Shown here piece after piece: positions 1 through 31,240 of a stretch of 32,000 nucleotides of DNA. The notes beneath the pieces were generated by a model. It was not told the DNA's origin, did no database searches, and was given only the letters and a program-made list of their open reading frames with translations. The position numbers were made by a program, and so were the translations under genes. This DNA is from Candidatus Nanopusillus sp. (GTDB taxonomy: Archaea > Nanobdellota > Nanobdellia > Nanobdellales > Nanobdellaceae), in contig JBMSAQ010000006.1 of the NCBI GenBank assembly GCA_049414405.1, positions 1 to 32,000 on the forward strand, written 5' to 3'. How positions within the stretch are numbered: position 1 is the stretch's first letter; each line of letters opens with the position of its first letter.

Positions 1-488
1 ATCCAGTCCAACTATCAAATGTATTATTAAAATATCCATATGCTATAAATACATATTTTCCATTATCATATTGTCTAGAAGGATCTACTTGGGGAGAAAC
101 ACCTACGTATGGGTAATATAGTGGATAATAATTTGTATAATAATTTCCAATTGCCATATAAATTACAATATTACTATTAGCAAGTATTTCATTAGGTAAT
201 TTTATCCACCAAATTCTACAATATGTACTTCCATTTACTAATTGACCTAAATACCATGAATATATGTTTGGAGTACTGTTGTAATTTGTAGTAAAGTATA
301 CATTTTTACCATCTGGGCGTATTTGATTAAATAATGTTGGATTATTTACAAAAGCAAAATTAGGACCAATAAGATTTTAATGAACCAAAAATACCCGAAG
401 TAAATGCATAAAATATTCCAGCAATTGCTACAGTTATAACAATAATTAATATAGTTGCTATTATTGGAGAAATAGATCTAATATACAT
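1..488 (-). pseudogene. Archaeal type IV pilin-like (class III signal peptide) surface protein. The frame breaks after 42 codons and the 3' end runs off the window.
   Basis: The minus-strand ATG at 488 encodes MYIRSISPIIATILIIVITVAIAGIFYAFTSGIFGSLKSYWS*, with the stop at 360-362. A short polar N-terminus followed by a ~22-residue hydrophobic helix is the archaeal prepilin/archaellin-type N-terminal domain. A second frame is open from 376 to position 1 (NLIGPNFAFVNNPTLFNQIRPDGKNVYFTTNY...YCRIWWIKLPNEILANSNIVIYMAIGNYY...). Its WW.K.P...IYM..GN pattern is reminiscent of DUF2341/lectin-fold surface proteins. Deleting one A from the AAAA run (plus-strand T run 375-378) fuses the two frames. Confidence 0.5.
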
Positions 489-509
489 ATAATATTTGTT
501 TTTTTTTAG

Positions 510-517
510 TTTATAAA
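510..517 (-). promoter_or_regulatory. TATA-box candidate (TTTATAAA) for the pilin-like gene
   Basis: TTTATAAA is centred about 26 nt upstream of the ATG at 488. The same motif and spacing recur upstream of many genes in this window, and no Shine-Dalgarno-like sequence is visible. Confidence 0.4.
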
Positions 518-593
518 AGTTTTGCATTTATAATGAATGGTATTTTAGATAAAATTATGAATATGAACTATAAAATATATAAAAAATCTTAAA

Positions 594-666
594 TGGGACC
601 GCGGGGATTTGAACCCCGGACCTCCGCCTTGTAAGGGCGGCATCATAGCCACTAGACTACGGTCCC
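594..666 (-). tRNA. tRNA-Val (anticodon UAC), 73 nt, no intron, CCA not encoded
   Basis: The reverse complement is GGGACCGTAGTCTAGTGGCTATGATGCCGCCCTTACAAGGCGGAGGTCCGGGGTTCAAATCCCCGCGGTCCCA. It folds by hand into a cloverleaf with a 7-bp acceptor stem (GGGACCG/CGGTCCC) and a 5-bp anticodon stem (CCGCC/GGCGG). The anticodon loop is CTTACAA (anticodon TAC), the variable loop is 5 nt, and the T arm is CGGGG-TTCAAAT-CCCCG with discriminator A. It is the only GC-rich island in the AT-rich surroundings. Confidence 0.93.
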
Positions 667-5972: not shown

Positions 5973-6734
5973 TTATTCATCATTATTTATATTGTATACC
6001 TTAATAAAGTTATTAAATATTATTTCTTCCAATTCTTTCTTATCTATATCCTTTATTTCAGATATCTTTTCTAATGAGTATACTATCTTCCACGAATTAT
6101 TTACTATTTTACCTTTTTCTATTGGATCTAAATATGGAGAGTCTGTTTCAGTTAAAATAAATTCTAATGGTACATTTTCTACAATTTTTTGAAATCCATA
6201 ATCTCTGTAAACAATTGTTGGTATTGACAAATAACAATTTATTTCAATTGCTTTGTCTACTAAAGAAGGTTTCCAGAAAGAGTGTAATACTCTTTTATTA
6301 TTATAACTTGTTAATATTTCTAATACCTCTTTTTCAGCCTTTCTACTATGAATTATTACTGGTTTCTTTAATCTATCTGCTAATTCTAAAAATTTTTCAA
6401 AATATATTTTTTGTTTTTTAATTTTATCTTCATCTACATTAGAAAAATCTAATCCAACCTCTCCAATTGCCAAAAATTTTTTATCTTTATTTTCTTCAAT
6501 AAATTCCAATATTTTTTCTATATCATTATCATTCATATTTACAATTTCTTCAGGATACAATCCTAAAGCATAATATATTATACCATACTTTTTAGATTCT
6601 TCAATTACTATATTCATACTATCAACATCTATAGAATTTTCAATTATATATTTTACGTTTCTTTCAATATTTTCCTTTATTTTTTCATCAACATCTTTAT
6701 ATAAAAATAGATGTGCATGATCATCGACTATCAT
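5973..6734 (-). CDS. TatD-family metal-dependent hydrolase/DNase (paralog 1)
   Basis: The 253-aa product has DDHAHL, GEVGLDF, IHSR, HSF and TETDSPYL motifs. Confidence 0.85.
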   Translation of the reverse strand: MIVDDHAHLFLYKDVDEKIKENIERNVKYIIENSIDVDSMNIVIEESKKYGIIYYALGLYPEEIVNMNDNDIEKILEFIEENKDKKFLAIGEVGLDFSNVDEDKIKKQKIYFEKFLELADRLKKPVIIHSRKAEKEVLEILTSYNNKRVLHSFWKPSLVDKAIEINCYLSIPTIVYRDYGFQKIVENVPLEFILTETDSPYLDPIEKGKIVNNSWKIVYSLEKISEIKDIDKKELEEIIFNNFIKVYNINNDE

Positions 6735-10274: not shown

Positions 10275-11510
10275 CTACTTTAAAGACTTCCCTACATATT
10301 TCATACTCAAGCTTCCTAAAGTAACTACATATTTCATAATTTGGTCTTCATACTCTTCAGGGCTCCTAAAGTAATTCATTAGGAGATGCTTAATTTTTTC
10401 ACCTGCATGTATACGTGCACTTACATGTGCTTTTCTTACTTCATATGGAGATATGGTTTGATAATTCTTATCTTTTAGCATCTTCTTTAATGTAGTTTCT
10501 TTTACTTCTTTATAATATTTATATAAACCCTCTATTATTTCTTCGCCTCCATTTGCTAATTTTTCTAAACCTTTTTTAAATCTTTCAATTTCCTCTGGTG
10601 AGTGCTTATACTTTGATACTGACCATTCTAGAAAACTTTCCATGAAGGAACCCATAAAGTAATATATATCTGCATATTCTCTGAGAATTTTTGGATCATT
10701 AGTTAAAAGATTAATTTTGTTCAATTTTCTTAAGTTTTCAATTAATGTTGCTAATGATGGTAAAGCTTCTCGTATTACTACTCCGTGTGCGTTTATTATA
10801 GAAGATGCATAAAGATCATAGTTTCTTATGACTTCCTCTAATTCTTTTCTTATTTCTACTTCATCTATTTCTGCTTTTTTGCTACCTATAGAAGATGGTA
10901 TTTTTGAAAACGCTTCTTTCAATACAGATAGATATTTTGCTACTGATGGTTTTTTTCCTAAATATTTGCTAAGTTTTTTTCCATAATTTTCAGGATCATC
11001 CAAATATCGAACTATAAGAAACGTAATAGCTCGAACTTCGGGTACTATTTCAAATATATCTTTATCTATATCTTTTTTAGATATTGGGATGGTTTTAAAT
11101 AAGTGGTATAGATTATACAAATCTTCTATTACTTGTTTGCCTCCATTTGCTAAAGCTTCTAAACTTTTTATAAATTCTTCAATTTCTACTGGTGGACGCT
11201 TCTTTATAGTATAATGATGAATACCTTTAAGTATGCCTCTTTTAAAGTTATATTCATCTATACACTTTCGGAGAGTTTTTGGATCATTGGTTAAAAAACT
11301 TTTACATTCACCAAACTTCTCTAAATTTTTTATTAGTTTTGATAACGATGGTAATGCTTGTGGTGCATTTTTTAATACTCTTTCGAGTGCATCGCCCTTT
11401 GTAGATAAATAAAGTGCGTATTCAAACACAGCTTTATGTAATGCCTTCCTTACTGATTCTTCTAATGTTTTAGATTGATTTTGATTTGAAGATAAGGGTA
11501 TTCCTTCCAT
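10275..11510 (-). CDS. Hypothetical all-helical protein built from two tandem ~197-aa modules
   Basis: The 411-aa product contains an internal repeat. ALPSLSKLIKNLEKF (52-66) matches ALPSLATLIENLRKL (249-263), LTNDPKTLRKCIDEY matches LTNDPKILREYADIY, and LEALANGGKQVIEDLYNLY matches LEKLANGGEEIIEGLYKYY. The offset is constant at about 196-198 residues. It ends with TAG. Confidence 0.65.
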   Translation of the reverse strand: MEGIPLSSNQNQSKTLEESVRKALHKAVFEYALYLSTKGDALERVLKNAPQALPSLSKLIKNLEKFGECKSFLTNDPKTLRKCIDEYNFKRGILKGIHHYTIKKRPPVEIEEFIKSLEALANGGKQVIEDLYNLYHLFKTIPISKKDIDKDIFEIVPEVRAITFLIVRYLDDPENYGKKLSKYLGKKPSVAKYLSVLKEAFSKIPSSIGSKKAEIDEVEIRKELEEVIRNYDLYASSIINAHGVVIREALPSLATLIENLRKLNKINLLTNDPKILREYADIYYFMGSFMESFLEWSVSKYKHSPEEIERFKKGLEKLANGGEEIIEGLYKYYKEVKETTLKKMLKDKNYQTISPYEVRKAHVSARIHAGEKIKHLLMNYFRSPEEYEDQIMKYVVTLGSLSMKYVGKSLK

Positions 11511-11628: not shown

Positions 11629-12855
11629 ATGGTTGAACCATGGATAAAAAAATATGCACCTAAACATATTAATGAAATAATTAATCAAGCAGAAGCTGTT
11701 GGAAAAATAAAATCTTTTATTGAAAAATATCCAAATGTGGATAAAAAAGCATTATTATTATATGGACCTCCAGGTGTTGGAAAAACATCATCAATATATG
11801 CAATTGCAAATGATTTAAATTATGAAGTTGTAGAAATAAATGCTTCAGATAATAGAAATGCGAGAGCTATACATGTAAAATTAGGAGAAGCAATAAAGGG
11901 AAAACCTTTTTTCAAAAAGGGAAGGATAATATTGGTTGATGAAGTTGATGGGTTAGCAGGATTTCAAGATAGAGGAGGAATAGGGGCATTAATAAAAATA
12001 ATAGAAGAATCAAGATGGCCAATAATATTAACTGCAAATGATCCATGGGATCTTAAGTTTAAAAAATTAAGAGATGTATGTAATGTGGTTGAATTCAAAA
12101 AATTATCAAATACAGATATAATAAGACAGTTAAGAAGAATTTGTGCAAGTGAAAAAATAACAATTGATGATAATGCATTATCTGCACTTGTAGAAAGATC
12201 TTCTGGAGATTTAAGAAGTGCAATAAATGATCTGCAAGCATTGGCAACAATGAGCAATCATATTACCTTAAAAGACTTAGAAGTTTTGGGTTATAGAGAA
12301 AGAGAGATTACAATATTTAGAGCATTGGGTCAAATGTTTAAAGCAACTACAATAATGGGGTCTACATTACCATTTGCTGATGTAGATATGGATCCTGAAG
12401 AAATTAAGGCATGGGTTGAAGAGAATATATCGAATGAATATGAAAATATAAAAGAAATATATGAAGCTTATAATTGGTTATCATTGGCAGTTATATTTTA
12501 TGGAAGAATTTATAAAAGACAATATTGGGATCTATTAAGATATTTTACAACATTAATGTATGCTGGTGTTGCATTGGCAAAAGAAAAGAAATATAATAAA
12601 TTTACAAAGTACAGGATGCCACAGTATGTAAAAAGATTGGCTCAAAATAAAGAAATAAGGGAAAAAATTGAAGAATTGTCAAAAAATTTACAGAAGAAGG
12701 TTCATACATCAAAAAAGAGAGTTAGAGAAGTATATATAAACACATTAATAGTTTTAATGAAAAATAATGAAAAAATAGGGAGAAAATATGCGGAAATATT
12801 GGGATTTAATGAAAATGAAATATCATATATAAAAGCTGCTGTAGAAAAGTTATGA
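11629..12855 (+). CDS. rfcL: Replication factor C large subunit
   Basis: The 408-aa product has WIKKYAPKHINEIINQ, Walker A GPPGVGKTS, VDEVDG, and SGDLRSAINDLQ (sensor-2 region). It ends with a TGA that overlaps the next ATG (ATGA). A TATA-like TTTTAATAT at 11600-11608 lies about 25 nt upstream. Confidence 0.9.
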   Translation: MVEPWIKKYAPKHINEIINQAEAVGKIKSFIEKYPNVDKKALLLYGPPGVGKTSSIYAIANDLNYEVVEINASDNRNARAIHVKLGEAIKGKPFFKKGRIILVDEVDGLAGFQDRGGIGALIKIIEESRWPIILTANDPWDLKFKKLRDVCNVVEFKKLSNTDIIRQLRRICASEKITIDDNALSALVERSSGDLRSAINDLQALATMSNHITLKDLEVLGYREREITIFRALGQMFKATTIMGSTLPFADVDMDPEEIKAWVEENISNEYENIKEIYEAYNWLSLAVIFYGRIYKRQYWDLLRYFTTLMYAGVALAKEKKYNKFTKYRMPQYVKRLAQNKEIREKIEELSKNLQKKVHTSKKRVREVYINTLIVLMKNNEKIGRKYAEILGFNENEISYIKAAVEKL

Positions 12856-13340
12856 AAGAACTAAACAAAAAAATTGTAGAAGAAATATTTAAGAAAATAG
12901 AAGAATACTATAATATGAAGATAGATAAGTCAATAATAAAGAAATATAGATTTTTTATTAATAAGGATAAAATATATATGTTTAATAAGAATTTTCCAGA
13001 CTTTTTGGACGAAAAATATATAAAAAAATATGGTTTGTATGTTATTAAAATAGAAAAAAATAATAGATATAGATTTAGTATAGAAGGAGCACAAATATTT
13101 GGAATAAATTCTAATAAAAATATTGAAATAAAAAAGGAAAATCTTTTTTATAAATCTAATGAAAATATAAAATTGGAAAAAAATTTTGAGAATGGTTTTT
13201 ATATAGCAAAAGATAATAATGATATTTTGGGTAGTGTTTATATTAAAAATAATATATTAAAAGATTTTATACCAAAAGAAAGAAAAATAAATTATACCTT
13301 TACTAAAGATAAGCCAGAAAATACATATGTAAATAAATAA
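12852..13340 (+). CDS. Small RNA-binding-like protein, tentatively Nip7/pre-PUA-PUA family
   Basis: The 162-aa product resembles archaeal Nip7-like proteins in size and layout: an N-terminal helical region, YGLYVIKIEKNNRYRFSIEGAQIFG, and a C-terminal NDILGSVYIKNNILKDFIPKER. The assignment is from memory only. The gene is translationally coupled to rfcL. Confidence 0.4.
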   Translation: MKELNKKIVEEIFKKIEEYYNMKIDKSIIKKYRFFINKDKIYMFNKNFPDFLDEKYIKKYGLYVIKIEKNNRYRFSIEGAQIFGINSNKNIEIKKENLFYKSNENIKLEKNFENGFYIAKDNNDILGSVYIKNNILKDFIPKERKINYTFTKDKPENTYVNK

Positions 13341-14941
13341 TATACTCCAATATTTAATAATGCACTTAACCATATCATAATTGTTGCATCTAAGAACATT
13401 CCTAGTTTAGATCCCCCATCTATGTTTTTTATTATTCCAGCTAATATAAATGCCTCAATAATAGATAAAATAAATATATAATTCTGTATCACATATAGAG
13501 GTATTGAAAATGTATATATATTTATGCCTATTTGAGATACTGCAGTACCAAGTGCTGTGGATATACCTTGAAACATTTGATCTAATAAATATAATATTTG
13601 AACAATTATGAATAGAATTGCTATAAATGCTATATATGTTCCATATATAATACCCCTTAAATTAGATATAAATTGAGATTTTCTTGATCTAAGTTCAATT
13701 ATTTTTATTAATATATTATATAACATATCACCAGCTTTTTTTGTATCCCCATTATATGATAAAACCTTTTCAAATACTTTTATTATTTTTTCTGTAATTG
13801 AACTACCCAATTCAATTATGAAATGTCTCCATGATTCAGAATAATTTTTTGTTATATTCATTCTTTTCCTTAACCTATGAATATCTTCATTTAATAAACC
13901 AAAATCATGTATGACGACATTATCTAATATTTTTGTTTGATTGTTTCCAAATATTTCCGAGTATTCTATTATACTGCTAAAGAATGCTGGGAAATGATTT
14001 TCTTTTATTTTTAATGCTCTTTCTAATAATATCATCCTATAGCTTACATATGCTAATGGAGTGACTGCTATTGCGAATGCCTCCAACAATTGTAATTTTA
14101 ATATTAGAAATAGTATTAAGAATAATATATAGGATATTAGTAACAAAAGATAAAATAAATATCTTATTGTTACATATTCTTTTGGTTTTTCTTTTGAACG
14201 AGACCATAGTCCATCATCAGGAATGTAATATTTTGATACGTAATATATAAGTAAATTAGTTACAACAAATATTATAAAGAAATTTATTAGCAAGAATATT
14301 ATATTTGTGCTTATTAAAAATGGTATAAATAATATTAAAGAAAATGCAAATCCTAAAGATGATAATAAAGATATTATAAATTCATCTAATAATCTTATAT
14401 TTTCTAAACCTTTTTCATAATTTGCTTCATATATTGCCAATTGGGTTTCATATTCCTTATATAAAAATTCTGAAATTTCCTCACCAATATCAATTGAAGT
14501 TGCAAATCTCTCTAGAAAACTCTTAAAATTACTATTTGGAATATATGGTAGGGTATATCTTATAGCTTCTGGAATTGTATAATTATACTTATTTGTTAAA
14601 TAAAGGATCTTTGACATGTAGTAGTTTATATCCTTAAATTCTGCTTTTTCTTCGATTGCAATTTCTAATAATCTTCTAGTATTATTTGTAGAAAATGAAA
14701 GAGAATATAAATATGCTATATAATATAACAAAGATCTATCTAAAGACTTTTTTGTTTTATAATATTCTAGAAATATAACTTCTAATGAAAAAATAATTGC
14801 AGATAAATATAAAACTGGATAGTATATTTTTAATACCGGTAGATAATAACCTATTACAATTATTAATGTAATTATTATACTGAATATTATGGTAATTTTT
14901 CTAAGGCTCTTTTTAATGATATCGTTAATAAGTTCATACAT
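13292..14941 (-). CDS. FlaJ/ArlJ/TadC-like polytopic membrane platform protein (T2SS-F domains), orphan copy
   Basis: The 549-aa product has many TM helices that alternate with two cytoplasmic helical domains typical of FlaJ/TadC (IPEAIRYTLPYIPNSNFKSFLERFATSIDIGEEISEFLYKEYETQLAIYEANYEKGLENIRLL and a second ...WRHFIIELGSSITEKIIKVFEKVLSYNGDTKKAGDML...). No ATPase gene is adjacent. Confidence 0.7.
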   Translation of the reverse strand: MYELINDIIKKSLRKITIIFSIIITLIIVIGYYLPVLKIYYPVLYLSAIIFSLEVIFLEYYKTKKSLDRSLLYYIAYLYSLSFSTNNTRRLLEIAIEEKAEFKDINYYMSKILYLTNKYNYTIPEAIRYTLPYIPNSNFKSFLERFATSIDIGEEISEFLYKEYETQLAIYEANYEKGLENIRLLDEFIISLLSSLGFAFSLILFIPFLISTNIIFLLINFFIIFVVTNLLIYYVSKYYIPDDGLWSRSKEKPKEYVTIRYLFYLLLLISYILFLILFLILKLQLLEAFAIAVTPLAYVSYRMILLERALKIKENHFPAFFSSIIEYSEIFGNNQTKILDNVVIHDFGLLNEDIHRLRKRMNITKNYSESWRHFIIELGSSITEKIIKVFEKVLSYNGDTKKAGDMLYNILIKIIELRSRKSQFISNLRGIIYGTYIAFIAILFIIVQILYLLDQMFQGISTALGTAVSQIGINIYTFSIPLYVIQNYIFILSIIEAFILAGIIKNIDGGSKLGMFLDATIMIWLSALLNIGVYYLFTYVFSGLSLVKV

Positions 14942-17887: not shown

Positions 17888-18639
17888 TGAATTTTTATCA
17901 AAATTTTTATCAATATTTTATACATCCTGTAGTAGAATATCAATATAGATATAATATATATAATACATTTTTATATGGGTTATTATTTGTTATTGGTTTT
18001 ATCATTTTTTATTATCTTTTCGTAAAAAATAAGAAAGTAATTATCGATAGATATTTTTTATTAAATCTAATTATTTTGACTTTAATATTTATTATTCCAA
18101 GAGTAAACATGGATTTAGGTTATACAGTAAGAACATATCTATTACTTACACCTTTGTTAGAATTATGGATTTTAATATCTTTTTTACCAGTTCTTTTTTT
18201 ATATAAATATAGAAAGTATTACTTATACATATTATTGATAATTTTAATATTGGAGATTCCAATTTTTATTTTTGGAAGATCAATAAATTTATTACCATTT
18301 TTAATATTCGTTATATTGTTTTCTATTTTAATTTATTTATCATATAAAGAAAAATTATTTTATTTATCAATCTTTGGTGAAATATATGAGACTATTTTTT
18401 CGATTATTTCTATATATTATTTTAATTTACAATCAGAACATCTGCTATTAAACATTCTTATTTTTCAATATAACAATCCTTTATTATTTTATGGATTAAA
18501 ATTATCTTTAACATTATTCATTGCACTATATACAAAATATTATTTAAATGATGATATAAAAAATGTAATATATACGATGATATTTTATTTAGGGTTTTTA
18601 CCAGGTTTAAGAGCTAGTCTTATAGATATATTATTATGA
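17887..18639 (+). CDS. Polytopic membrane protein, tentatively DUF63 family
   Basis: The 250-aa product has about 7 predicted TM helices. Its N-terminus (YFIHPVVEYQYRYNIYNTFLYGLLFVIGF) resembles my recollection of the DUF63 N-terminal signature (Y..P......GYN.vnT..Y..iL). Confidence 0.5.
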   Translation: MNFYQNFYQYFIHPVVEYQYRYNIYNTFLYGLLFVIGFIIFYYLFVKNKKVIIDRYFLLNLIILTLIFIIPRVNMDLGYTVRTYLLLTPLLELWILISFLPVLFLYKYRKYYLYILLIILILEIPIFIFGRSINLLPFLIFVILFSILIYLSYKEKLFYLSIFGEIYETIFSIISIYYFNLQSEHLLLNILIFQYNNPLLFYGLKLSLTLFIALYTKYYLNDDIKNVIYTMIFYLGFLPGLRASLIDILL

Positions 18640-19352: not shown

Positions 19353-20435
19353 ATGGATGTTAAAGAACTTGAATTACAAATGTTAATAGAAGAATTAAGT
19401 AATTATAATGGCAGGGCTACAGAACTAATTTCATATTATATACCGGCCGGATATGACTTAGCTAAGATTTTAGACCATTTAAATTATGAATATTCAACTG
19501 CTCAAAATATTAAGGATAAGAATACTAGGCAACATGTGATGGATGCATTGGCAAAAATAATAAATTATCTGAAAGGGTTAAAAAAACTTCCAGACAATGG
19601 TCTAGTAGTATTTTGTGGAAATATATCAAACAGACCTGGAGAAGTCGATATAAGATTATGGGCAATAGAACCTCCAGATAAATTAAACATTAGATTATAT
19701 AGATGTGACTCTAGGTTTGTATTAGACCCGTTAAAAGAATTAATATTACCAAAGCAAATATATGGGTTAATAGTTTTAGATAGAGGAGAAGCTTCTATAG
19801 GAGTATTAAAAGGCAATCAATTGATAGTATTAGAAAATAAGCAATCATGGGTTCCTGGTAAAATAAGGGCTGGAGGACAATCTTCTGTAAGATTCCAAAG
19901 ATTAATAGAACAAGATGTTCATTTATGGTTAAAATATTTAGCAGATGAAGTTAGAAATTATTTTGAAAAAGATTTAGATAAATTGGTTGGTATACTGGTT
20001 GGAGGGCCGGGATTACTTAAAGAACAATTTGTTAATGGTGATTATTTACCATATCATCTTAAACAAAAAATTTTGGCTGTATATGATACGGCATATTCAA
20101 ATGAACACGGGTTAAAAGAATTATTAGAAAGGGCAAAAGATGTATTAAAAAAAACAGAATATGTAAGGGAAATAGAATTAACAAAATTATTTTTTGAACA
20201 TCTTGGAAAAGGTACTGGTTTAGTAATTTATGGATTTGATGATGTAAAAAGAGCATTAGAAATTGGCGCAGTAGATACAATACTAATATCAGAAGATTAT
20301 AAAGATAAGACTAAAGAATTATTTGAATTAATTGAACAAACAAATGCAAAAGTTGAAATAATATCAAAAAATCATCCTGAAGGGGAACAATTTTCAAACT
20401 TTAAAATAGGTGCAATATTAAGATTTAAGATATGA
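19353..20435 (+). CDS. prf1: Peptide chain release factor aRF1
   Basis: The 360-aa product has GRATELISYYIP, the tetrapeptide NIKD in the NIKS position (19506-19517), YRCDSRF (YxCxxxF), and the GGQ motif (RAGGQSSVRFQRL). Confidence 0.92.
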   Translation: MDVKELELQMLIEELSNYNGRATELISYYIPAGYDLAKILDHLNYEYSTAQNIKDKNTRQHVMDALAKIINYLKGLKKLPDNGLVVFCGNISNRPGEVDIRLWAIEPPDKLNIRLYRCDSRFVLDPLKELILPKQIYGLIVLDRGEASIGVLKGNQLIVLENKQSWVPGKIRAGGQSSVRFQRLIEQDVHLWLKYLADEVRNYFEKDLDKLVGILVGGPGLLKEQFVNGDYLPYHLKQKILAVYDTAYSNEHGLKELLERAKDVLKKTEYVREIELTKLFFEHLGKGTGLVIYGFDDVKRALEIGAVDTILISEDYKDKTKELFELIEQTNAKVEIISKNHPEGEQFSNFKIGAILRFKI

Positions 20436-21746: not shown

Positions 21747-22439
21747 ATGAGTAAGATTTCTACCGGAATATATCCAATAGATAAATTGTTAGATGGAGGT
21801 ATCGAAACCGATATTATCACATCATTTTATGGACCTTCTGCATCAGGAAAAACAAACATTGCAGTAATAAGTTCTTATAATATTTCTAAATTTGGTAAAA
21901 AGGTAATATATATTGATACTGAAGGTGGCTTTTCTCTTGAAAGATTAAAACAGATTGCAAAAGAAGATCTTGAGAATGTAATAAAAAATATATTATTATA
22001 CAAACCAGTAAATTTTTCTGAACAAAAAAAGGCAATATATTTAACATATGATTATGTAAAAAAGAACTCTAATGATGTTGGATTAATTGTTATAGATTCT
22101 ATATCAATGTTATATAGATTAGAAAGGGGTGATAGCAATGTAAATGAAGTAAATATAGAACTTGCAAAACAATTACAGATATTTTCAGAAATTTCTAGAA
22201 AATATAATATACCAGTTTTGGTTATAAATCAAGTATATTCATTGTTTGATAATAGAGATGCAATCGGAATTGTTGGAGGAGATTTAATAAAATATTGGTC
22301 AAAATGTTTGGTTGAATTGAAGATTTTAGATAATGGTATTAGAGAAGCAATATTAAGAAAGCATAGGTACTTACCAGAGGGAATATCTGTAAAATTTAGA
22401 ATAGTAAATGATGGAATTATTGAATATAAGGAAATCTAA
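21747..22439 (+). CDS. radB: DNA repair and recombination protein RadB
   Basis: The 230-aa product is a RecA-fold core without the N-terminal HhH domain. It has ISTGIYPIDKLLDGGIE, Walker A GPSASGKTN, and Walker B LIVIDS. Confidence 0.85.
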   Translation: MSKISTGIYPIDKLLDGGIETDIITSFYGPSASGKTNIAVISSYNISKFGKKVIYIDTEGGFSLERLKQIAKEDLENVIKNILLYKPVNFSEQKKAIYLTYDYVKKNSNDVGLIVIDSISMLYRLERGDSNVNEVNIELAKQLQIFSEISRKYNIPVLVINQVYSLFDNRDAIGIVGGDLIKYWSKCLVELKILDNGIREAILRKHRYLPEGISVKFRIVNDGIIEYKEI

Positions 22440-22874: not shown

Positions 22875-24017
22875 TTATATTTCTTCTAATACCTTTTTGA
22901 TGTCATCACTATTTGCTACATATTTAAATTTACTAAATACATTTGAAAAAATGACTTTTTTATCATTAGTATTTAATGATTTTACATATTCTACAATTTC
23001 TTTCTTCAATTCTTCTCTATTTCTTTTATATAAGTTATTTTCTCTTATTATATCTTCAATATCCTTATTATATTTGATATAATAATAATATATTATTGGT
23101 ACTGCATTTTTTACAATTTTTTTATCTTTTAAATAATCTTTTATCTTATATACAAAATTTAAATCAAATTTTTCTATTTTTTCTTTGAATAAATTTTCTG
23201 TATCCCCAATCATCTGAAAGAATAAATAATACACAGTAGTTGAATCTATATCGAAAGACATTTTTATTATATCATTTATATATTCGCTCCATATTATATT
23301 TTCAATTTGTTTTTCATTATATCCAAAAGATTTTAACATTTGTTTAATAAATTCTGGATCGATAGAATTTAATATTGTTTTTCCTTCATTTAACAATTTA
23401 ATATATAGGTCTTTATCAAATTTTTTTAAATAATATATATTGAATGTTTCTTTAATGTCTCCATAACTTATATTATATCTTATTATATTGTATTCATTAT
23501 TTTCAATAATGTCTTTATCAATATATAGGTAAGGATGATCAGTTTCAGGATACATTCTTTCAGAACCTGGTTGCGGTCTTAAAAAAGATGTAGTTCCATC
23601 ATCGTTTGCTTGTCTGGTATCTTTTGGTATTCCTTTAATTGATTCATTTATTCTATTTATTATTAAGTTAAAAACCTTTTTGGCTATTTCATAATCTTTT
23701 GATATTAATAATATAAACGCATCTTCATCTGAGCAGTTTAATATTTTTTTAACATTTTTGACTTCTTCTTCGGATATTCCGTAGTTTGGTAATTCATCTG
23801 AATGTAATATTCCCTTTAATCCAAATTTTTTTGCAATATCAGAAAATTCAGTTCCTATTCTTCTATTTGGTGATATTTCAAATCTAATCATTTCTTTCAT
23901 TTTATTGAGTTTTATTCCATATACTTTAGCCCCATTGTCTATGTTCAATTTAACTAATTTAGATTTTGTTTCTTTAAATATTTCGGTTAAGTCATATATT
24001 TTAATCTTAAATATCAT
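22875..24017 (-). CDS. gatE: Glu-tRNA(Gln) amidotransferase subunit E, C-terminal portion only (N-terminal ~280 aa of canonical GatE absent)
   Basis: The 380-aa product contains ISPNRRIGTEFSDIAKKFGLKGILHSDELPNYGISEEEV...IKGIPKDTRQANDDGTTSFLRPQPGSERMYPETDHP. This matches the GatE region ..GRRLGTE.ADYAKK.GV.GIFHTDELPAYGITEEEV..GVPEETR.A..DG.T.YLRPLP...RMY.ETD as I remember it from methanogen GatE (~620 aa). The helical/tail region follows. No upstream ORF supplies the missing N-terminus. Confidence 0.75.
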   Translation of the reverse strand: MIFKIKIYDLTEIFKETKSKLVKLNIDNGAKVYGIKLNKMKEMIRFEISPNRRIGTEFSDIAKKFGLKGILHSDELPNYGISEEEVKNVKKILNCSDEDAFILLISKDYEIAKKVFNLIINRINESIKGIPKDTRQANDDGTTSFLRPQPGSERMYPETDHPYLYIDKDIIENNEYNIIRYNISYGDIKETFNIYYLKKFDKDLYIKLLNEGKTILNSIDPEFIKQMLKSFGYNEKQIENIIWSEYINDIIKMSFDIDSTTVYYLFFQMIGDTENLFKEKIEKFDLNFVYKIKDYLKDKKIVKNAVPIIYYYYIKYNKDIEDIIRENNLYKRNREELKKEIVEYVKSLNTNDKKVIFSNVFSKFKYVANSDDIKKVLEEI

Positions 24018-24700: not shown

Positions 24701-25426
24701 TTAATATATGAACTTAGCAAAATTAGTTTGTATGATATTTGATAATTCTTCCAAATCTATTTTTTGCATATTTGAAATTAATCTATAAAGGTCTTTTAAC
24801 AAGTCTGGGTGGAGTATAATACCTTTATAATTGTATGGTCCATCAGATTCTGTTATTATATTTTTTATATTCGCAATTTCTATATATCTTTTATACTTCT
24901 CATTTATTATTGTTGCGACATTTATACCTATAAAATATCCTTTATCAATTATTTCTTCCAATAATTTTTCATCCCCACTATACCAATGAAAATACGCCTT
25001 TTTAATATCATACTTTATTAAAAGATCAAATACCTCATTTGAAGCATTGGGAGTGTGAAGATTTAAATTTAATTCATATTCTTTTGCTAAATTTAAAAAT
25101 TTTTCAAAAATTTCTTTCTGTTTTTCAAATGTTTCTGGTTTAAATTTTTTATCTAATCCAATTTCTCCAAGTATTTTTATTTTATTTTCTTTTATTATGT
25201 CTTCTATTATTTTAAATGTTTTTTCATTTATATTTTCTACATTCCAAGGATGAATTCCTACGGCTGGTATTACATTTTCATTTAATTGAGATAAAAACAA
25301 ATTTTTTAATGAAGATTCTAAATCTTCAGAGACAGACAGTATTATTATATCTCTATTTTTTATTATTCTTTTAATTTCTGTTTCATTAAATTTATATAGG
25401 TGACAATGAGAGTCAATATATTTCAT
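24701..25426 (-). CDS. TatD-family metal-dependent hydrolase/DNase (paralog 2)
   Basis: The 241-aa product has IDSHCHL, GEIGLD, LHTPNA, HWYSG and TESDGPY. Its ATG overlaps the stop of the upstream 131-aa ORF (ATGA at 25423-25426). Confidence 0.85.
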   Translation of the reverse strand: MKYIDSHCHLYKFNETEIKRIIKNRDIIILSVSEDLESSLKNLFLSQLNENVIPAVGIHPWNVENINEKTFKIIEDIIKENKIKILGEIGLDKKFKPETFEKQKEIFEKFLNLAKEYELNLNLHTPNASNEVFDLLIKYDIKKAYFHWYSGDEKLLEEIIDKGYFIGINVATIINEKYKRYIEIANIKNIITESDGPYNYKGIILHPDLLKDLYRLISNMQKIDLEELSNIIQTNFAKFIY

Positions 25427-25818
25427 GTTATATTCAACTGCTTATTTTGGTAATATATATTAATTATTGAACAATTATCATCTAATACTATATAATTACT
25501 ATTATTGCATAAATTCAAATTACTGTCTGATACTTCACACCCCCAATTATGTGAATTTGGATAAGAAATCCAATATTGATATAATATAGAATTTTTTGAT
25601 ACTAAACATGTATTACTTAAATTATCTATAGATAAATTATGCTTTGCATATATACATAGAGCCTGACAGTATTGGGCAATTTGAGATATTTGATATAGTT
25701 CATTCTGATTTAAGTTTATGTTATTATTTATCGGATATAATATTGGAGCAATTATAAATCCTGATGCTAACAATGCCAATAGTATGGATCCTAATATAAC
25801 GTTCTTCCTTCTTTCCAT
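25423..25818 (-). CDS. Signal-anchored, Cys-rich, sequon-rich putative surface protein
   Basis: The 131-aa product has MERRKN followed by a hydrophobic helix (VILGSILLALLASGFIIAPIL). A polar domain follows with 6 Cys and several N-x-S/T sequons (NLS, NLS, NNS, NCS, NIT). It does not have a canonical class III (K/R-G/A) prepilin site. Confidence 0.5.
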   Translation of the reverse strand: MERRKNVILGSILLALLASGFIIAPILYPINNNINLNQNELYQISQIAQYCQALCIYAKHNLSIDNLSNTCLVSKNSILYQYWISYPNSHNWGCEVSDSNLNLCNNSNYIVLDDNCSIINIYYQNKQLNIT

Positions 25819-25849
25819 TAATAAAATTTATTAAAAAGGATTAAAAAAT

Positions 25850-26578
25850 TTAGGGTTTTCTAATAGAGTCTCTTAAAGACTTCAGTTCTTCTACAGTTTC
25901 TCTTAATTCTTTTGTAGATTCTGATATAGCAGGTATCATCGTTCTTATTAATCTGTGCAATGCTTGTATTTCCGTTGTTGTTTCTCTCATTCCTTTATCA
26001 TATTCTTCCAATTTTCTAATTGCTAAATTATTTATTTCGGTTATTTTATTATCCAATTTATCAATTTGGTCTTGCATTCTATTAATAAGATATTCTACCT
26101 TTTCTTTCCATACTTTTATTTGTGATAATTCGTCGTTTATTTCATTTAATTTATCCTTTAATATTTCACTTATTGTGCTATTTATATATTGTTCAAGCCT
26201 TTCATCTATAGCAAAACTTCCTTGTCCGAAATCTGGTTGATTTTGGATCTGCATTTGTTGTGGTGGAAATTGATTTAGATTTGGGGTTGGATTTGGCTGT
26301 GGAGGTAGATTCCACGATTGACTAAATTGATTAAATTGATTTGAAAAACTTTGCTGTGGCGACATTTGTTGATATGTTTGGCCATATGTTTGTCCAAAAG
26401 AATAATTTTGATAATTGTTTGTCATAGGATTAATATTACTACTCTGCTGAAATTGATTGAAAGGTCCGCTATTTTGCGGCATTGGATTATTAAAGTCTTG
26501 AAATAGATTATCTAAATTCTGTTGGTCATTCTGGTCCTTGTTACTCTTTTTGTTAAGTACCCCAAGTAAGCTTCTCAT
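25850..26578 (-). CDS. Q/N-rich (prion-like composition) protein with long C-terminal coiled coil
   Basis: The 242-aa product has a basic N-terminus (LLGVLNKKSNKD). A roughly 105-residue region follows that is about 40% Gln+Asn by hand count (NQFQQSSNINPMTNNYQNYSFGQTYGQTYQQMSPQQSFSNQFNQFSQ...). The final ~125 residues form a heptad-rich helical region (LNEINDELSQIKVWKEKVEYLINRMQDQIDKLDNKITEINNL...). Confidence 0.6.
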   Translation of the reverse strand: MRSLLGVLNKKSNKDQNDQQNLDNLFQDFNNPMPQNSGPFNQFQQSSNINPMTNNYQNYSFGQTYGQTYQQMSPQQSFSNQFNQFSQSWNLPPQPNPTPNLNQFPPQQMQIQNQPDFGQGSFAIDERLEQYINSTISEILKDKLNEINDELSQIKVWKEKVEYLINRMQDQIDKLDNKITEINNLAIRKLEEYDKGMRETTTEIQALHRLIRTMIPAISESTKELRETVEELKSLRDSIRKP

Positions 26579-26610
26579 AATTCTTAATAAAGATATTGAA
26601 TATTATAAAT

Positions 26611-26973
26611 TTAACTTTTCTGATTGTATAAATTACCCAAGTATTCTATAATCTTTTCTTTTACTAGTTTATCTAATTCTTTTTTAGTAACGAAATCAAA
26701 TGGATTTATATAATCTAGAATAGAATTTATAATTTTTAATTGATCTATAGTTGCAAAATTTGATAATTCATCAGTTATTGCTTTTATTTTTATTTCTAAA
26801 TCATTTATTTCTTGCTTTATATCTTTTATTTCCTTTTTAATATTTTCTATCTCTAATTTAAAATCCTCTAAAGAGCTTCTGGTAGTTACGTCTATGGTCT
26901 GCAATATATTATTAAACATTGAAATTTTTTCTTCTAAATATTTTAATCTTCTAAGTGTCTCTGGATCAATCAT
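26611..26973 (-). CDS. Small coiled-coil protein
   Basis: The 120-aa product is heptad-rich (LEDFKLEIENIKKEIKDIKQEINDLEIKIKAITDEL). It is the first gene of the minus-strand operon that diverges from the ATPase gene. Confidence 0.55.
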   Translation of the reverse strand: MIDPETLRRLKYLEEKISMFNNILQTIDVTTRSSLEDFKLEIENIKKEIKDIKQEINDLEIKIKAITDELSNFATIDQLKIINSILDYINPFDFVTKKELDKLVKEKIIEYLGNLYNQKS

Positions 26974-27011
26974 AGTAAAACTATTATATTTTAATACATA
27001 TTAATCTTTAT

Positions 27012-29255
27012 ATGTTAAATAATTTGCAGTATGAAATTAGAATGAATGGGAAAGAAAGATTATTATATGTAAATGCTAAAAATTATAATAGTATTGCAAC
27101 GATTGAAGATGATCCAAATATAATGGAATATATATTAAATATATTGTCTATAGATCCGTTTGTAAATACAATAATAATTGAACAAGATGAGAATATAGAG
27201 TATTATGAAGATAGTATAAAAGTATTGAATAGTTTTCTCGATGTATATCTTTCTATTAAAAGTAATATATCAGAATATTATAGGTATTTATTAACCAGTA
27301 ATCCATTATATTCAGAAATAAGAACCGTAATAGATTATTTGGATAGGGGTTATTTAAAAGATCCAATTGGTACATATGTATTTATAAGAAGAATGAAGAG
27401 GAAATTGATGTCATTATTAAAAAATAGTAAGAATTTAGAAAACCAAATATCAAATTTAGTATCATTAATAGATAACTTTTTAATAAAATTTGAATCATTA
27501 CCTTTCTATAAGTATATTAAACCATTTTTGATTGGATACCAAATTGGAAATAGAGAAATATACAGAAGACTATTGTTGGGTGATATAAAACCAAAATTTA
27601 TAGATACAAAATATATAAATAAAATCTCAGAAAGTTATAATATCGTAGATTCTTATAGATTGGATAAAAATACGGAAGTTTTTATATTAAAAAACCCTGA
27701 AGAAACAGTTTTTAGATATTACATATTTCCAGAAGAATATAAAATATTCTCTGAAGAAACATTTTTATCCCACAAAGCAATAGAAATTTTACAGGAATAT
27801 GAACCTAGAAAGGAAGATTATTTGGATGTAGAAAGATTAAGAGAAATATATAATAATGTATTAAATAATATAATAACGAAATTAATGTCTATATATAACA
27901 TAAGTATAGATAAAAATAGATTAGAATTGATTAAGAGTATAATTATTAGATACACAATTGGTTTTGGAATAATAGAAAAAATAGTATTAGATGAAAATTT
28001 AGAAGATCTTTTTATAAATCCACCAGCAGGCATAACCCCAATATATTTACAGCATTCTAAATATGAAATGTGTGTTACAAATGTAACTCCAACTAGAAGA
28101 GAAGTAGAATCGTGGGCTACAAAATTGAGATTAATATCTGGAAGACCTTTTGATGAAGCAAATCCGGTTTTGGATACAGATCTAGTAATTGGAAATAACA
28201 TATTACTAAGAGTTGCAGCATTATCACTCCCATTATCTCCATTTGGATTGGCGTATATAATTAGAAGACATAGAAGTAAACCATGGACTTTACCTTTGTT
28301 TATAGATAATAAAATGTTAAATTATCAAGCTGCAGGTTTATTATCCTTTTTAGTTGCAAATGGAAGGACTATTCTTATTGCTGGCACAAGGGGGAGTGGT
28401 AAAACATCATTATTAACAGCCTTAATGTTGGAAATACCTAAGAAAGTTAGGATAATAACTGTAGAGGATACTTTAGAAATACCAGCAGAATATTTCAGGT
28501 CAATAGGGTATAACATAGTTCCTATGAAAGTCAGGAGCCCATTTTCACTAAAATCTGCCGAATTATCCGCTGAAGAAGGTTTAAGAGTATCTTTAAGAAT
28601 GGGGGATAGTGCCATAATTGTTGGAGAAGTTAGATCTAAAGAAGCTTTAACTTTATATGAAGCTATGAGAGTTGGTGCTTTAGCAAATGCAGTAATGGGT
28701 ACTTTACATGCAGAAAGTCCATATGGTGTATTTGATAGGGTTGTAAATGATCTTGGAGTTCCTAAAACATCGTTCAAAGCTACAGATATAATAGTAATTG
28801 TAAATCCAATTAGAGAACCTTCTGGATTAAAAAGATATAGGAGAATATTAAGGATAACAGAAGTAAGAAAGTTTTGGGATCAAGATCCATTAAAAGAAAG
28901 AGGGTTTGCTGATTTAATGATTTATGATGCTGAAAAGGATAATTTAGAGCCAACTTTAGAATTAATAAATGGAGATTCTGATATATTGAAGGCTGTTGCA
29001 TCTAGGATAAGATATTTGTCAAAATCTTGGGAAAGAGTATGGAATATGGTAGAGACAATAGGTCTGTCAAAAAAATTATTAGTAGATATAGCAAGAGAAA
29101 AAAATAAGAAAGATATTTTGGAAGCAGATTTTGTTTCTGCATATAATGAAATATTTTATCAATATGTAGATAAAAGTATTAAGGAATACAATGAAATTGT
29201 GAAAGATTATATATTAGATAATATGAAGAAATGGATATACAAGAAGTTAAGTTAA
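27012..29255 (+). CDS. FlaI/ArlI/VirB11-class secretion ATPase (T2SS-E/PilB superfamily) with an extended N-terminal region
   Basis: The 747-aa product has Walker A AGTRGSGKTS (nt about 28380-28409, Lys at residue 464), an Asp box IITVEDTLEIP, Walker B SAIIVGEVRSKEA, and a His box GTLHAESP. Confidence 0.88.
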   Translation: MLNNLQYEIRMNGKERLLYVNAKNYNSIATIEDDPNIMEYILNILSIDPFVNTIIIEQDENIEYYEDSIKVLNSFLDVYLSIKSNISEYYRYLLTSNPLYSEIRTVIDYLDRGYLKDPIGTYVFIRRMKRKLMSLLKNSKNLENQISNLVSLIDNFLIKFESLPFYKYIKPFLIGYQIGNREIYRRLLLGDIKPKFIDTKYINKISESYNIVDSYRLDKNTEVFILKNPEETVFRYYIFPEEYKIFSEETFLSHKAIEILQEYEPRKEDYLDVERLREIYNNVLNNIITKLMSIYNISIDKNRLELIKSIIIRYTIGFGIIEKIVLDENLEDLFINPPAGITPIYLQHSKYEMCVTNVTPTRREVESWATKLRLISGRPFDEANPVLDTDLVIGNNILLRVAALSLPLSPFGLAYIIRRHRSKPWTLPLFIDNKMLNYQAAGLLSFLVANGRTILIAGTRGSGKTSLLTALMLEIPKKVRIITVEDTLEIPAEYFRSIGYNIVPMKVRSPFSLKSAELSAEEGLRVSLRMGDSAIIVGEVRSKEALTLYEAMRVGALANAVMGTLHAESPYGVFDRVVNDLGVPKTSFKATDIIVIVNPIREPSGLKRYRRILRITEVRKFWDQDPLKERGFADLMIYDAEKDNLEPTLELINGDSDILKAVASRIRYLSKSWERVWNMVETIGLSKKLLVDIAREKNKKDILEADFVSAYNEIFYQYVDKSIKEYNEIVKDYILDNMKKWIYKKLS

Positions 29256-31240
29256 ATAAATTAGATATTCAAAATTTAGAAAGTAAATTAAGATTATATA
29301 AATATATATATTTTGGCAATAAATTAAAATATTATGAGGAAATTGTTAAAACGTTTGGAAATATAATAAAGATCAGAGTAAATGAAAATAAAAGAAAAAA
29401 TTTTGAAAAAATAAATGAAGAACTTCTTCTAGATGTAAATATTGATCAGATAGAATCATCAGCAATATTCCTTCTAATACTGTTCATTTTTATAGGGATA
29501 ATTCCATCAATTATAATATCTCCTTTATATTTCTTATTATTTGCTTCTTTTGGTGTGTTATTTTACATATTGATAGATTATTATTATATTATTTTGTATA
29601 ATAATCTAAATATAAAGAAAAAATCCCAATTAATAAGTTTATTATTATTATTAGCTATTAAATTAAGACAAAATCCAAATGTAGAACAAGCCATATTATT
29701 TGCTGCAAAAAATATTAACTTACCATTGAAATTAGATTTATTAAGATTGTTAAGAGATGTTTATAATAGAAAATATATTTCAGCATCAGAAGCTTTAATA
29801 GAATATTCAAGATCTTGGGAAAAAAATGCAAAATTCTTCTATATTGGCGTTATGCTCATTTTAAGTGCTTTATATGATCCAGATAAAGATAGGAGAAATT
29901 TTCAAATAGATAAATCTATAGAAGAAGCTTTAGATGAATTAGTAAATGAACTATATGAATTTTCTAGAGAAATACGATCTACAATAAATCTAGTATCTAT
30001 GTTGGGTATAACTTTACCTGTTATGTTATTAACGATATTTCCTCTTGCATCAATATTCTTAGGAAATATATTTAGTCCTTTTATTTTATTTATATTATTT
30101 GATATTTTAATACCATTTATAGCATTTTTTTCAATTAACTATGCAATTTCTTCAAAAATGATTAGTATTTTTTCAGAGGACGATATATATTTGTTCTATT
30201 ATTTAAAAAGAAAAGATTTAACTAATAAATTAATATCGATAGCAAGCGGATTTTCAGTAGGTATACTACTATTTTTTATAATCTTTTTTGTAATATATCA
30301 ATATTTATATAAATTTGATGTTTTGGGAGTATTATTATCTGAATTTTTTGTACTTTTAATGGGTTTATCAATTTCATTGATTGCTTTTACATATTATTCC
30401 CATTATAAAGATTTATATAAAAGTTTAGAAAGAATAGAAATGGATTTACCACCATTTTTATTATCCCTAAGTTCGGCATTAAATGAGGGCTATCCGCTTG
30501 AAAAGGCGATGATACATGTTTATTCTAAATATAAAGGCGGCCCAATAGGAGATTTTATATCAAAAATATACCAAAATTTAAGGATGGGCTTATCATTTTA
30601 TGATTCAATATTCGATGTTAGATATGGAGCCTTATCTAAAATTCCATCATCAAAATTAAGATCTACAATGGAATTGTTATATGAAGCTAGTAGTCAGTCT
30701 CCTACGGAAGCTTCTTCTATAACAGGGATAATTGCAAAATATTTCTTATTAATATCAAAGGTAAAGGAGAGAATTAAAGACCTTGTAGCAGAAGATCTAT
30801 CTCAATTAAAATCATTATTGAGAATTTTAGCTCCAGTTATTTTAGGAATAGTAAGTGCTGTTGGTGTAATGGTTATAGAAATTTTACATAAATTATCTTT
30901 TCAATTTAATCAAATATCAAATTTAACATCACTCGATTCTAATGTTTCTCAATATATAAATTCATTGCCAAATATTATATTTAATATATTTAACTTAAAT
31001 TCGCTTATAACCCCGTCTTCAATGATAATAATAATTGGAATATTTAATGCAGCAATTGCTTTTGTAATTATATACGCAATTAATAGTATAGAAAATAGTG
31101 GTGATAAATTAGGATTTTACTACTATTTATATAAATATTATATAATAAATATATTAATGTTCTTTATATTTTCTACAATATCTACAATAGCATTATATAT
31201 GTTTGTACATGGAATATTAAATATCGATTATCTTATCTAA
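29231..31240 (+). CDS. FlaJ/ArlJ/TadC-like polytopic membrane platform protein
   Basis: The 669-aa product overlaps the ATPase gene by 25 nt. It has multiple TM helices and two cytoplasmic T2SS-F-like helical domains, for example LPPFLLSLSSALNEGYPLEKAMIHVYSKYKGGPIGDFISKIYQNLRMGLSFYDSI. Confidence 0.75.
   Translation: MDIQEVKLNKLDIQNLESKLRLYKYIYFGNKLKYYEEIVKTFGNIIKIRVNENKRKNFEKINEELLLDVNIDQIESSAIFLLILFIFIGIIPSIIISPLYFLLFASFGVLFYILIDYYYIILYNNLNIKKKSQLISLLLLLAIKLRQNPNVEQAILFAAKNINLPLKLDLLRLLRDVYNRKYISASEALIEYSRSWEKNAKFFYIGVMLILSALYDPDKDRRNFQIDKSIEEALDELVNELYEFSREIRSTINLVSMLGITLPVMLLTIFPLASIFLGNIFSPFILFILFDILIPFIAFFSINYAISSKMISIFSEDDIYLFYYLKRKDLTNKLISIASGFSVGILLFFIIFFVIYQYLYKFDVLGVLLSEFFVLLMGLSISLIAFTYYSHYKDLYKSLERIEMDLPPFLLSLSSALNEGYPLEKAMIHVYSKYKGGPIGDFISKIYQNLRMGLSFYDSIFDVRYGALSKIPSSKLRSTMELLYEASSQSPTEASSITGIIAKYFLLISKVKERIKDLVAEDLSQLKSLLRILAPVILGIVSAVGVMVIEILHKLSFQFNQISNLTSLDSNVSQYINSLPNIIFNIFNLNSLITPSSMIIIIGIFNAAIAFVIIYAINSIENSGDKLGFYYYLYKYYIINILMFFIFSTISTIALYMFVHGILNIDYLI

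Follow-up and report, generated by a model that had tools for sequence, protein, structure and literature searches.

The closest described systems to the locus studied here are the archaeal type IV pili surveyed by Makarova, Koonin and Albers in 2016, in which the same PilB/FlaI-class ATPase lies beside a TadC-like platform protein (PMC4858521). In Nanoarchaeota, ATPase/TadC pairs resembling those of type IV pili have already been described as second and third systems (PMC4858521, PMC6142677). Both clade 2 and subclade 4F pairs are reported in nanoarchaea, as is a type IV pilus ATPase without identifiable cognate pilins, and two nanoarchaea lack a prepilin peptidase altogether (PMC4858521). 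We have analysed a pair of this kind in a stretch of 32,000 nt from Candidatus Nanopusillus sp. (contig JBMSAQ010000006.1, positions 1-32,000), referred to below as the window, where an enlarged ATPase and its platform protein are transcribed divergently from the genes of two coiled-coil proteins, c120 and c242. An earlier note on this DNA proposed an undescribed surface apparatus; that description does not hold, as such pairs, the missing pilins and the missing peptidase are all in the literature (PMC4858521, PMC6142677). The ATPase/platform pair and the puzzle of its pilins are thus already known. The parts that appear to be undescribed in the literature searched are a two-protein coiled-coil module found throughout the phylum, a structured N-terminal extension of the ATPase, and the addition, in related loci, of paralogous transmembrane (TM) proteins and a ribbon-helix-helix (RHH) protein. 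The products of the locus are probably the inner core of a machine that assembles a second type IV filament distinct from the archaellum; it is confined to Nanoarchaeota/Nanobdellota and has c120 and c242 as its partners.

The window has a G+C content of ~24% and, judged from its sequence, comes from a Nanopusillus-like nanoarchaeon, a tiny symbiont. The features on which the argument rests are the following.

25850-26578, minus strand: c242, a soluble protein of 242 residues whose N-terminal half is Q/N/P-rich and whose C-terminal ~111 residues form a conserved coiled-coil domain

26611-26973, minus strand: c120, a soluble coiled-coil protein of 120 residues with the conserved C-terminal motif YI..W.P..FVT

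26974-27011, no strand assigned: divergent AT-rich spacer of 38 bp between the c120 and ATPase genes, with the sequence AGTAAAACTATTATATTTTAATACATATTAATCTTTAT

27012-29255, plus strand: PilB/FlaI-class secretion ATPase of 747 residues (Pfam T2SSE, E = 2e-23)

29231-31240, plus strand: FlaJ/TadC/PilC-like polytopic platform protein of 669 residues (T2SSF), its gene overlapping that of the ATPase by 25 nt

The earlier note had placed six open reading frames (ORFs) here, these four and two that are treated below, and all six were recovered exactly at those positions, together with the 25-nt overlap, the 38-bp spacer and an ATGA overlap between the two remaining genes. It had also called the ATPase an enlarged FlaI-class enzyme, the platform FlaJ-like, c120 a coiled coil and c242 a Q/N-rich protein with a coiled coil, and each of these descriptions was borne out.

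The ATPase is of the T2SSE class and has the Walker A and B, Asp and His boxes of the hexameric ATPases of type IV pili. Invariant in 11 homologues are the Walker A sequence GTRGSGKT, the E485-D486 box, E539/R541 and H566. Its closest relatives are found in a Nanopusillus metagenome-assembled genome (93% identity), Nanobdella aerobiophila (76%) and Nanoclepta minutus (53%). Full-length homologues with 42-93% identity occur in Nanopusillaceae and Woesearchaeota; proteins of 740-770 residues are found throughout Nanopusillaceae and, with 42-45% identity, in hundreds of Woese- and Pacearchaeota. What enlarges the protein is a family-specific N-terminal extension of ~215 residues and a C-terminal extension of ~100 residues. 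When the family profile was compared with the PDB, all the matches were confined to the core at profile positions ~215-650. The best solved relatives of this core are afGspE (2OAP; E = 1.7e-38, spanning ~215-650) and the Tad ATPase CpaF (8RKD, 9E24; E = 7e-32, spanning 292-626), followed by FlaI (4II7; E = 3e-20). Both afGspE and CpaF, at ~420-510 residues, are without the two extensions, and Tad systems are localised by TadZ/CpaE rather than by coiled-coil proteins.

The N-terminal extension is predicted to be well ordered. In an AlphaFold2 model of residues 1-222 (mean predicted local distance difference test score, pLDDT, 89), a small alpha/beta domain (1-64) is followed by a helical bundle (66-173), and Foldseek found no significant match for this fold in either the PDB or BFVD. 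An exhaustive library search with the extension found 73 cluster representatives at E ≤ 0.001, nearly all matching within the first ~250 residues of the matched protein. The ATPases of subclade 4F often have an extra, variable N-terminal domain too (PMC4858521), and in this they resemble the enlarged ATPase; the extension here, in contrast, is not rich in Cys and matches no solved structure. The enlarged-ATPase family also has some far longer members, with 917 residues in P0025 and 915-1783 in library representatives. P0025 contains an intein-splicing domain (PF14890), and inteins have therefore invaded the enlarged ATPase in some lineages.

The platform protein belongs with the polytopic PilC/TadC/FlaJ family encoded alongside such ATPases. 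It has ~8-9 hydrophobic segments, and residues 409-512 match Pfam T2SSF with E = 3.5e-5 at a score of 24.2 bits, just below the gathering cutoff of 25.2 bits. Its gene follows that of the ATPase in 78 of the 84 loci described next.

Gene linkage was followed in a sample of 80 species-representative loci, with family counts taken over 84 loci. Unbiased clustering of the ORFs gave only five families present in at least 48 loci, namely the ATPase (84), the platform (78), c120 (64), c242 (58) and a multi-TM protein (48). Homologues of c120 lie on the strand opposite the ATPase in 62 of 64 ORFs, at a median of ~0.5 kb upstream, and those of c242, which always adjoin c120, do so in 56 of 58. The well-flanked loci, with at least 3 kb upstream and at least 2.5 kb downstream, number 51 from Woese-/Pacearchaeota and 4 from Nanopusillaceae. 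Among the 51 the platform is present in 49, c120 in 43, c242 in 42 and the two coiled-coil genes together in 42; both are also present in all four Nanopusillaceae loci. Synteny inside Nanopusillaceae carries no information, since in Nanobdella and Nanoclepta gene order agrees with that of the window for 17 kb or more, and this covers the housekeeping genes as well. More telling is a Woesearchaeota locus (L004) that has none of the housekeeping neighbours found in the window, yet encodes proteins of 127 and 205 residues divergently from its ATPase; these are homologues of c120 and c242 (BLAST E = 9e-8 and 2e-10, respectively). In two loci (L067 and L083) c120 and c242 are displaced, and they have moved as a pair. 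The association was also examined in the reverse direction, starting from five c242 homologues on long contigs that were picked without regard to the ATPase. Each of the five is immediately preceded by a c120-like gene, and in four a T2SSE ATPase of 751-766 residues adjoins the pair divergently; the fifth has only a weak T2SSE fragment of 165 residues nearby. As c120 and c242 are linked to the ATPase/platform pair across the phylum, they are genuine candidates for accessory subunits. The earlier note had named loss of synteny in related genomes as grounds for giving up its claim; for c120 and c242 the synteny holds and the adjacency is not accidental.

Two further families accompany the Woese-type loci, and both are additions relative to the systems of 2016. 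The multi-TM family consists of 2-4 tandem paralogues (about three in each locus) of ~170-190 residues that belong to no Pfam family and lie just beyond c242 (for example L004, 7343-8937, plus strand; L086-L090). It occurs in 48 of the 84 loci and in 40 of the 51 well-flanked Woese-type loci, often with a PRC-barrel gene beside it. The other is a highly conserved RHH-like ORF of 47 residues, with the sequence MKKPISATIDEELIKWIEKE...YRNKSHLIEIALE.LK, which in 25 Woese-type loci immediately precedes the ATPase gene and shares its strand (for example L015, 166-309, plus strand; L010, 9522-9665, plus strand). Of the eight well-flanked loci without c120 and c242, five have this ORF, which is possibly a dedicated regulator. 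Both families (TM190 and RHH) were sought in the window and in the Nanopusillaceae loci and are absent from both.

Neither c120 nor c242 has a TM or hydrophobic segment, and the two are predicted to be cytoplasmic partners of the machine. Glutamine and asparagine make up 39% of the first 120 residues of c242, and its C-terminal domain has the consensus ..EKW..L.K....I..WKE...EYDK.I..VG.E.KAMEKVF.K.LP. This domain has 134 database relatives, all annotated as hypothetical and all from Nanoarchaeota, Pacearchaeota or Nanopusillaceae; a profile search with it returned only Nanoarchaeota-type proteins, and we detected no likeness of c120 or c242 to proteins outside the phylum. The Woesearchaeota c242 proteins begin with an extra UBA-like helical domain of ~45 residues (consensus P...V..M..QG.SN.QII..LQ..GY...QIFDA..QA, with weak UBA and Raf1_HTH matches), where those of Nanopusillaceae have the Q/N-rich low-complexity sequence instead. 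An iterative search with a c120 hidden Markov model (HMM) drifted to generic coiled coils beyond the first round, and results from single-sequence phmmer searches and BLAST clusters were used. Aligning c120 with the C-terminal domain of c242 in hhalign gave a probability of 73% with 17% identity over 72 columns, which is indistinguishable from coiled-coil bias.

Searches of Pfam, NCBIfam and the PDB with c120 and c242 returned only coiled-coil noise. Identification of either as ArlX, ArlC/D/E, ArlF/G or PilM/N/O was rejected, there being no match in these three databases with single sequences or with family profiles. The same holds for the third small protein of the locus, p131 (described below), so that the three match no known archaellum or pilus accessory in these databases; nor do they have a conserved [KR]-[GAS] or P-loop motif, as the earlier note had already observed for [KR]-G cleavage sites and P-loops. 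Halobacterial 4F loci, too, encode a cytoplasmic coiled-coil protein, arCOG07564 (PMC4858521); there are two coiled-coil partners here and not one. The 38-bp spacer from which the module would be transcribed is near-identical in the closest relative and identical in L006, and its 3' half is kept in Nanobdella and L007. It is presumably a bidirectional promoter common to c120 and the ATPase.

An indication of what the machine makes comes from the relatives. In many Woese- and Pacearchaeota loci the platform gene is directly followed on its 3' side by an array of as many as about ten small genes, whose products begin with M-(N)-K-K-G-(Q/E) and continue with a hydrophobic helix, which is the pattern of a class III signal peptide; several are Cys-rich. 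Such KKG pilin-like genes come directly after the platform in L004, L034, L043, L045, L054, L056, L062, L073, L075, L076 and L082. Since they stand beside the same pair, the machine most likely builds a filament. These loci match the DPANN 'dark matter' pilus islands of Makarova, Wolf and Koonin (2019), where an ATPase and TadC are followed by small unannotated signal-peptide proteins read as divergent pilins (PMC6393860, Fig. 2A). In the text consulted, that description does not single out a divergent coiled-coil pair or an enlarged ATPase, and the Nanopusillaceae version of the locus is without such an island. No pilin-like gene was found within 10 kb of the Nanopusillaceae loci, and none of the genes at the present locus encodes a class III signal-peptide pilin. 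The earlier note's statement that the locus has no pilin is correct for this lineage only; the orthologous loci of Woese- and Pacearchaeota have their arrays after the platform. No match to an A24 prepilin peptidase (PibD/FlaK) was found among the scanned ORFs of the window. Within the 32 kb a single ORF, the following one, has a pilin-like N-terminus.

360-527, minus strand: pilin-like ORF of 55 residues, in which ..YIRS is followed by ISPIIATILIIVITVAIAGIF.. (Pilin_N, E = 4e-4, below cutoff)

For a pilin this ORF would be very short; it adjoins the gene of tRNA-Val (594-666, minus strand), and exact-match database look-ups with it found no record. The comparison suggests that Nanopusillaceae have scattered or lost the pilin genes that their relatives kept. 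On this account the long-noted 'missing pilins' of nanoarchaea would reflect the break-up of an operon, because the relatives keep pilin-like arrays beside the same machine.

We can thus propose how the machine may work. Its core is a hexameric-type PilB/FlaI-class ATPase together with the polytopic TadC/FlaJ-like platform. The proteins c120 and c242 are dedicated, co-inherited partners, their genes running divergently from the 38-bp spacer, and would most likely serve as a cytoplasmic scaffold or adaptor that docks on the extra domains of the ATPase and positions or regulates the motor; physical contact of the two with the ATPase is what such a role would entail. The substrates would be class III signal-peptide pilins, which in Nanopusillaceae may be encoded elsewhere or be common to other filament systems, operons being generally broken up there. 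A filament would then be formed in the present organism as well.

Several points weigh against the proposal. Eight of the 51 well-flanked Woese-type loci have no c120 and c242 nearby. As coiled coils, the two proteins match neither folds nor profiles in an informative way. The 'pilins' of Woesearchaeota are called by their N-terminal motif only and Pfam matches none of them. No pilin or prepilin peptidase is present in, or recognisably linked to, the locus in any Nanopusillaceae genome examined, and two nanoarchaea are reported to be without the peptidase, so that filament assembly in this lineage is unproven. Finally, that this organism has a separate canonical ArlI rests on the literature. 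We nevertheless consider a second type IV filament machine with c120 and c242 as partners to be the probable reading.

The alternative that survives best is a more specific version of this reading, in which the product of the machine is the thin filament or tube, 7-8 nm wide, of the attachment organelle of Nanobdellales; the filament would pass through the portal of the cone into the host, and c120 and c242 would lie in its cytoplasmic base. Cultured relatives have an attachment organelle with a tube of 7 ± 1 nm (PMC11104419) or a filament of 8.2 nm (YN4 preprint), and they also bear a second appendage of 15 nm. The machine has been retained in a genome of ~0.6-0.8 Mb, and a FlaJ/TadC homologue is among the fastest-diversifying genes of Yellowstone Nanoarchaeota (PMC6142677). 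On the other hand, the four-gene module is found widely among Woese- and Pacearchaeota, and these are not known to have such an organelle. As nanoarchaea have two type IV pilus-like systems, the organelle filament, even if built by one of them, may belong to the other, and the filament in the cone could instead be cytoskeletal. We regard this assignment as unlikely, and equally so the proposition that a pilus-type apparatus has been repurposed for inter-archaeal parasitism and extrudes the 7-8 nm organelle filament or tube into the host cell, or builds the 15-nm appendage.

The archaellum motor, which comprises ArlI, ArlJ and ArlH with an ArlX or ArlCDE scaffold, has a homologous ATPase and platform, and in crenarchaea it is ringed by the coiled-coil scaffold ArlX/FlaX. 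It offers a functional analogy for c120 and c242, in line with the FlaX-like scaffolding that the earlier note had suggested. The two differ from ArlX/FlaX in having no membrane anchor and no sequence similarity to Arl proteins but may still act in a comparable way; their putative role would be functionally analogous to that of ArlX/ArlCDE or PilM/GspL, without homology to these proteins. Public annotation goes further and would make the pair itself ArlI and ArlJ: the Nanobdella orthologue of the ATPase carries the name 'flagella-related ATPase FlaI' at NCBI, FlaI is the top NCBIfam match of the ATPase, and archaella are present in relatives of the organism. The FlaI equivalog model (NF058587), however, scores only 133.6 bits against a cutoff of 550 bits and covers the core alone (residues 193-644). 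The platform, whose gene overlaps that of the ATPase, has no match in NCBIfam, the ArlJ model included, and a full-length ArlJ is encoded elsewhere in the window.

13292-14941, minus strand: canonical stand-alone ArlJ/FlaJ of 549 residues (NCBIfam NF004704, E = 3e-81, full length)

The platform is a paralogue of this protein. The arlJ gene sits between a PUA-like gene and that of ribosomal protein L4 with no other arl gene nearby, from which it follows that the archaellum genes are scattered in this genome. Pfam and NCBIfam searches of the small proteins found no ArlH, ArlF, ArlG, ArlX or ArlCDE near the ATPase/platform pair; the RecA-like gene at 21747-22439 was considered as ArlH and proved to be RadB (TIGR02237, 238 bits, above cutoff, against 18 bits for ArlH). 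In Woesearchaeota the pair precedes short KKG pilin-like genes and not archaellins. The literature, too, keeps the systems apart: N. aerobiophila and YN1 each have their archaellum genes listed on their own, and two type IV pilus systems are counted in nanoarchaea in addition to an archaellum (PMC6142677). The separate ArlJ, the platform without an ArlJ match and the low FlaI score together identify the pair as a paralogous second system. It is highly improbable that the pair is the archaellum motor; on the evidence of these sequences it is a second type IV pilus-like system.

A different objection is that the coiled-coil genes are unrelated neighbours, for example with a part in cell division or housekeeping, and lie next to the ATPase by chance. 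Their surroundings in Nanopusillaceae are indeed housekeeping genes, Woese-type loci often have a PRC-barrel gene close by, and either c120 or c242 might be the DPANN-specific alpha-helical family (NEQ484) that Makarova et al. (2019) describe as 'typically in house-keeping context'. Against this, the linkage survives a fall of ATPase identity to ~43% with every other neighbour changed, survives rearrangement and holds reciprocally, and we give chance adjacency very little credence.

The two remaining genes of the minus-strand cluster were assessed in the same way.

25423-25818, minus strand: p131, a signal-anchored protein of 131 residues with six Cys and five N-glycosylation sequons

24701-25426, minus strand: TatD nuclease of 241 residues (Pfam TatD_DNase, E = 1e-51)

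The signal anchor, the six Cys and the sequons that the earlier note had reported for p131 are all present, the 'many' sequons being 5 N-x-S/T sites where ~2.7 are expected from the N-rich composition. Members of the family share a short basic N-terminus, a single TM helix (residues 8-26 in p131) and six conserved Cys, and orthologues of p131 are found only in Nanopusillaceae. In an AlphaFold2 model (pLDDT 82, above 90 in the globular part) the TM helix is accompanied by one more helix and a sheet of four strands, and Foldseek found no match for it in the PDB, pilins and archaellins included. We considered whether p131 could be the missing pilin and rejected this: there is no conserved [KR]-[GAS] motif, no match to the HMM of the Cys-rich Woesearchaeota pilins and no match in the PDB, and the restriction of the family to Nanopusillaceae also disfavours it. 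It is doubtful whether p131, a lineage-specific neighbour or surface protein, belongs to the machine at all.

The earlier note had treated all the minus-strand genes as one operon facing the ATPase, and the linkage analysis divides them: c120 and c242 stay linked, whereas outside Nanopusillaceae p131 is found in none of the 51 well-flanked loci and TatD in 4, at a distance of 3-8 kb, on the other strand and never in the same position. TatD stands beside the pair in all four Nanopusillaceae loci, but this adjacency is confined to the collinear block, and a link to the machine was rejected on synteny; by the same evidence TatD is a housekeeping neighbour. The hint of nucleic-acid handling that the earlier note had drawn from the coupled nuclease is thus left without support. 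The ATGA overlap of p131 and TatD reflects genome compaction and not functional coupling, because short overlaps join unrelated genes elsewhere in the window: overlaps of 1-7 nt are frequent between housekeeping genes (for example 20432-20435, 18636-18639, 12852-12855 and 1351-1357), with 4 nt in each case for eRF1/CCA-adding enzyme, DUF63/RIO kinase and RFC/PUA-like. They are a sign of extreme compaction, and any argument from translational coupling is weaker in this genome. A second TatD-family paralogue lies ~19 kb from the first.

5973-6734, minus strand: second TatD-family paralogue of 253 residues (Pfam E = 2e-59)

That the products of the six genes take up or secrete nucleic acids as one apparatus, TatD and p131 being working parts of it, as the single strand, short gaps and ATGA overlap of c120, c242, p131 and TatD and the textbook role of bacterial type IV filament machines in DNA uptake might suggest, is the least credible of the alternatives in view of the restricted adjacency, the second paralogue and the widespread 4-nt overlaps.

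The remaining genes of the window are a scattered set of unrelated housekeeping genes; they encode RFC subunits, ribosomal proteins L4, L2 and S2, RIO kinase, eRF1, the CCA-adding enzyme, RadB, HIT, TFE, Dph2 and the second TatD. Two other ORFs are of some note. That at 22875-24017 (minus strand) encodes 380 residues that comprise a GAD domain and, of the GatB/GatE catalytic domain, just the tail. It may be a fragment of a GatE whose gene is split, as some genes of Nanoarchaeota are known to be. Its Nanobdella orthologue has 381 residues and no recorded Pfam match. The ORF at 10275-11510 (minus strand) encodes an all-helical protein of 411 residues that matches no family and has a clear internal duplication, in which ..ALPSLSKLIKNLEKF..LTNDPKTLRKCIDEYNF.. 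recurs as ..ALPSLATLIENLRKL..LTNDPKILREYADIYYF...

Physical contact with a host is essential to DPANN/Nanobdellota archaea. In the cultured relatives Nanobdella aerobiophila, YN1 and YN4, cryo-tomography has recently revealed a second appendage and a filament in the attachment organelle. The present analysis removes TatD and the Cys-rich p131 as misleading leads and warns against the public annotation of the enlarged ATPase as the archaellum FlaI. The phylum-conserved module of four genes, for the enlarged ATPase, the platform, c120 and c242, provides concrete candidates for those structures in the cultures. If the machine did build the filament of the attachment organelle, its cytoplasmic scaffold, made of c120 and c242, would be of a new kind.

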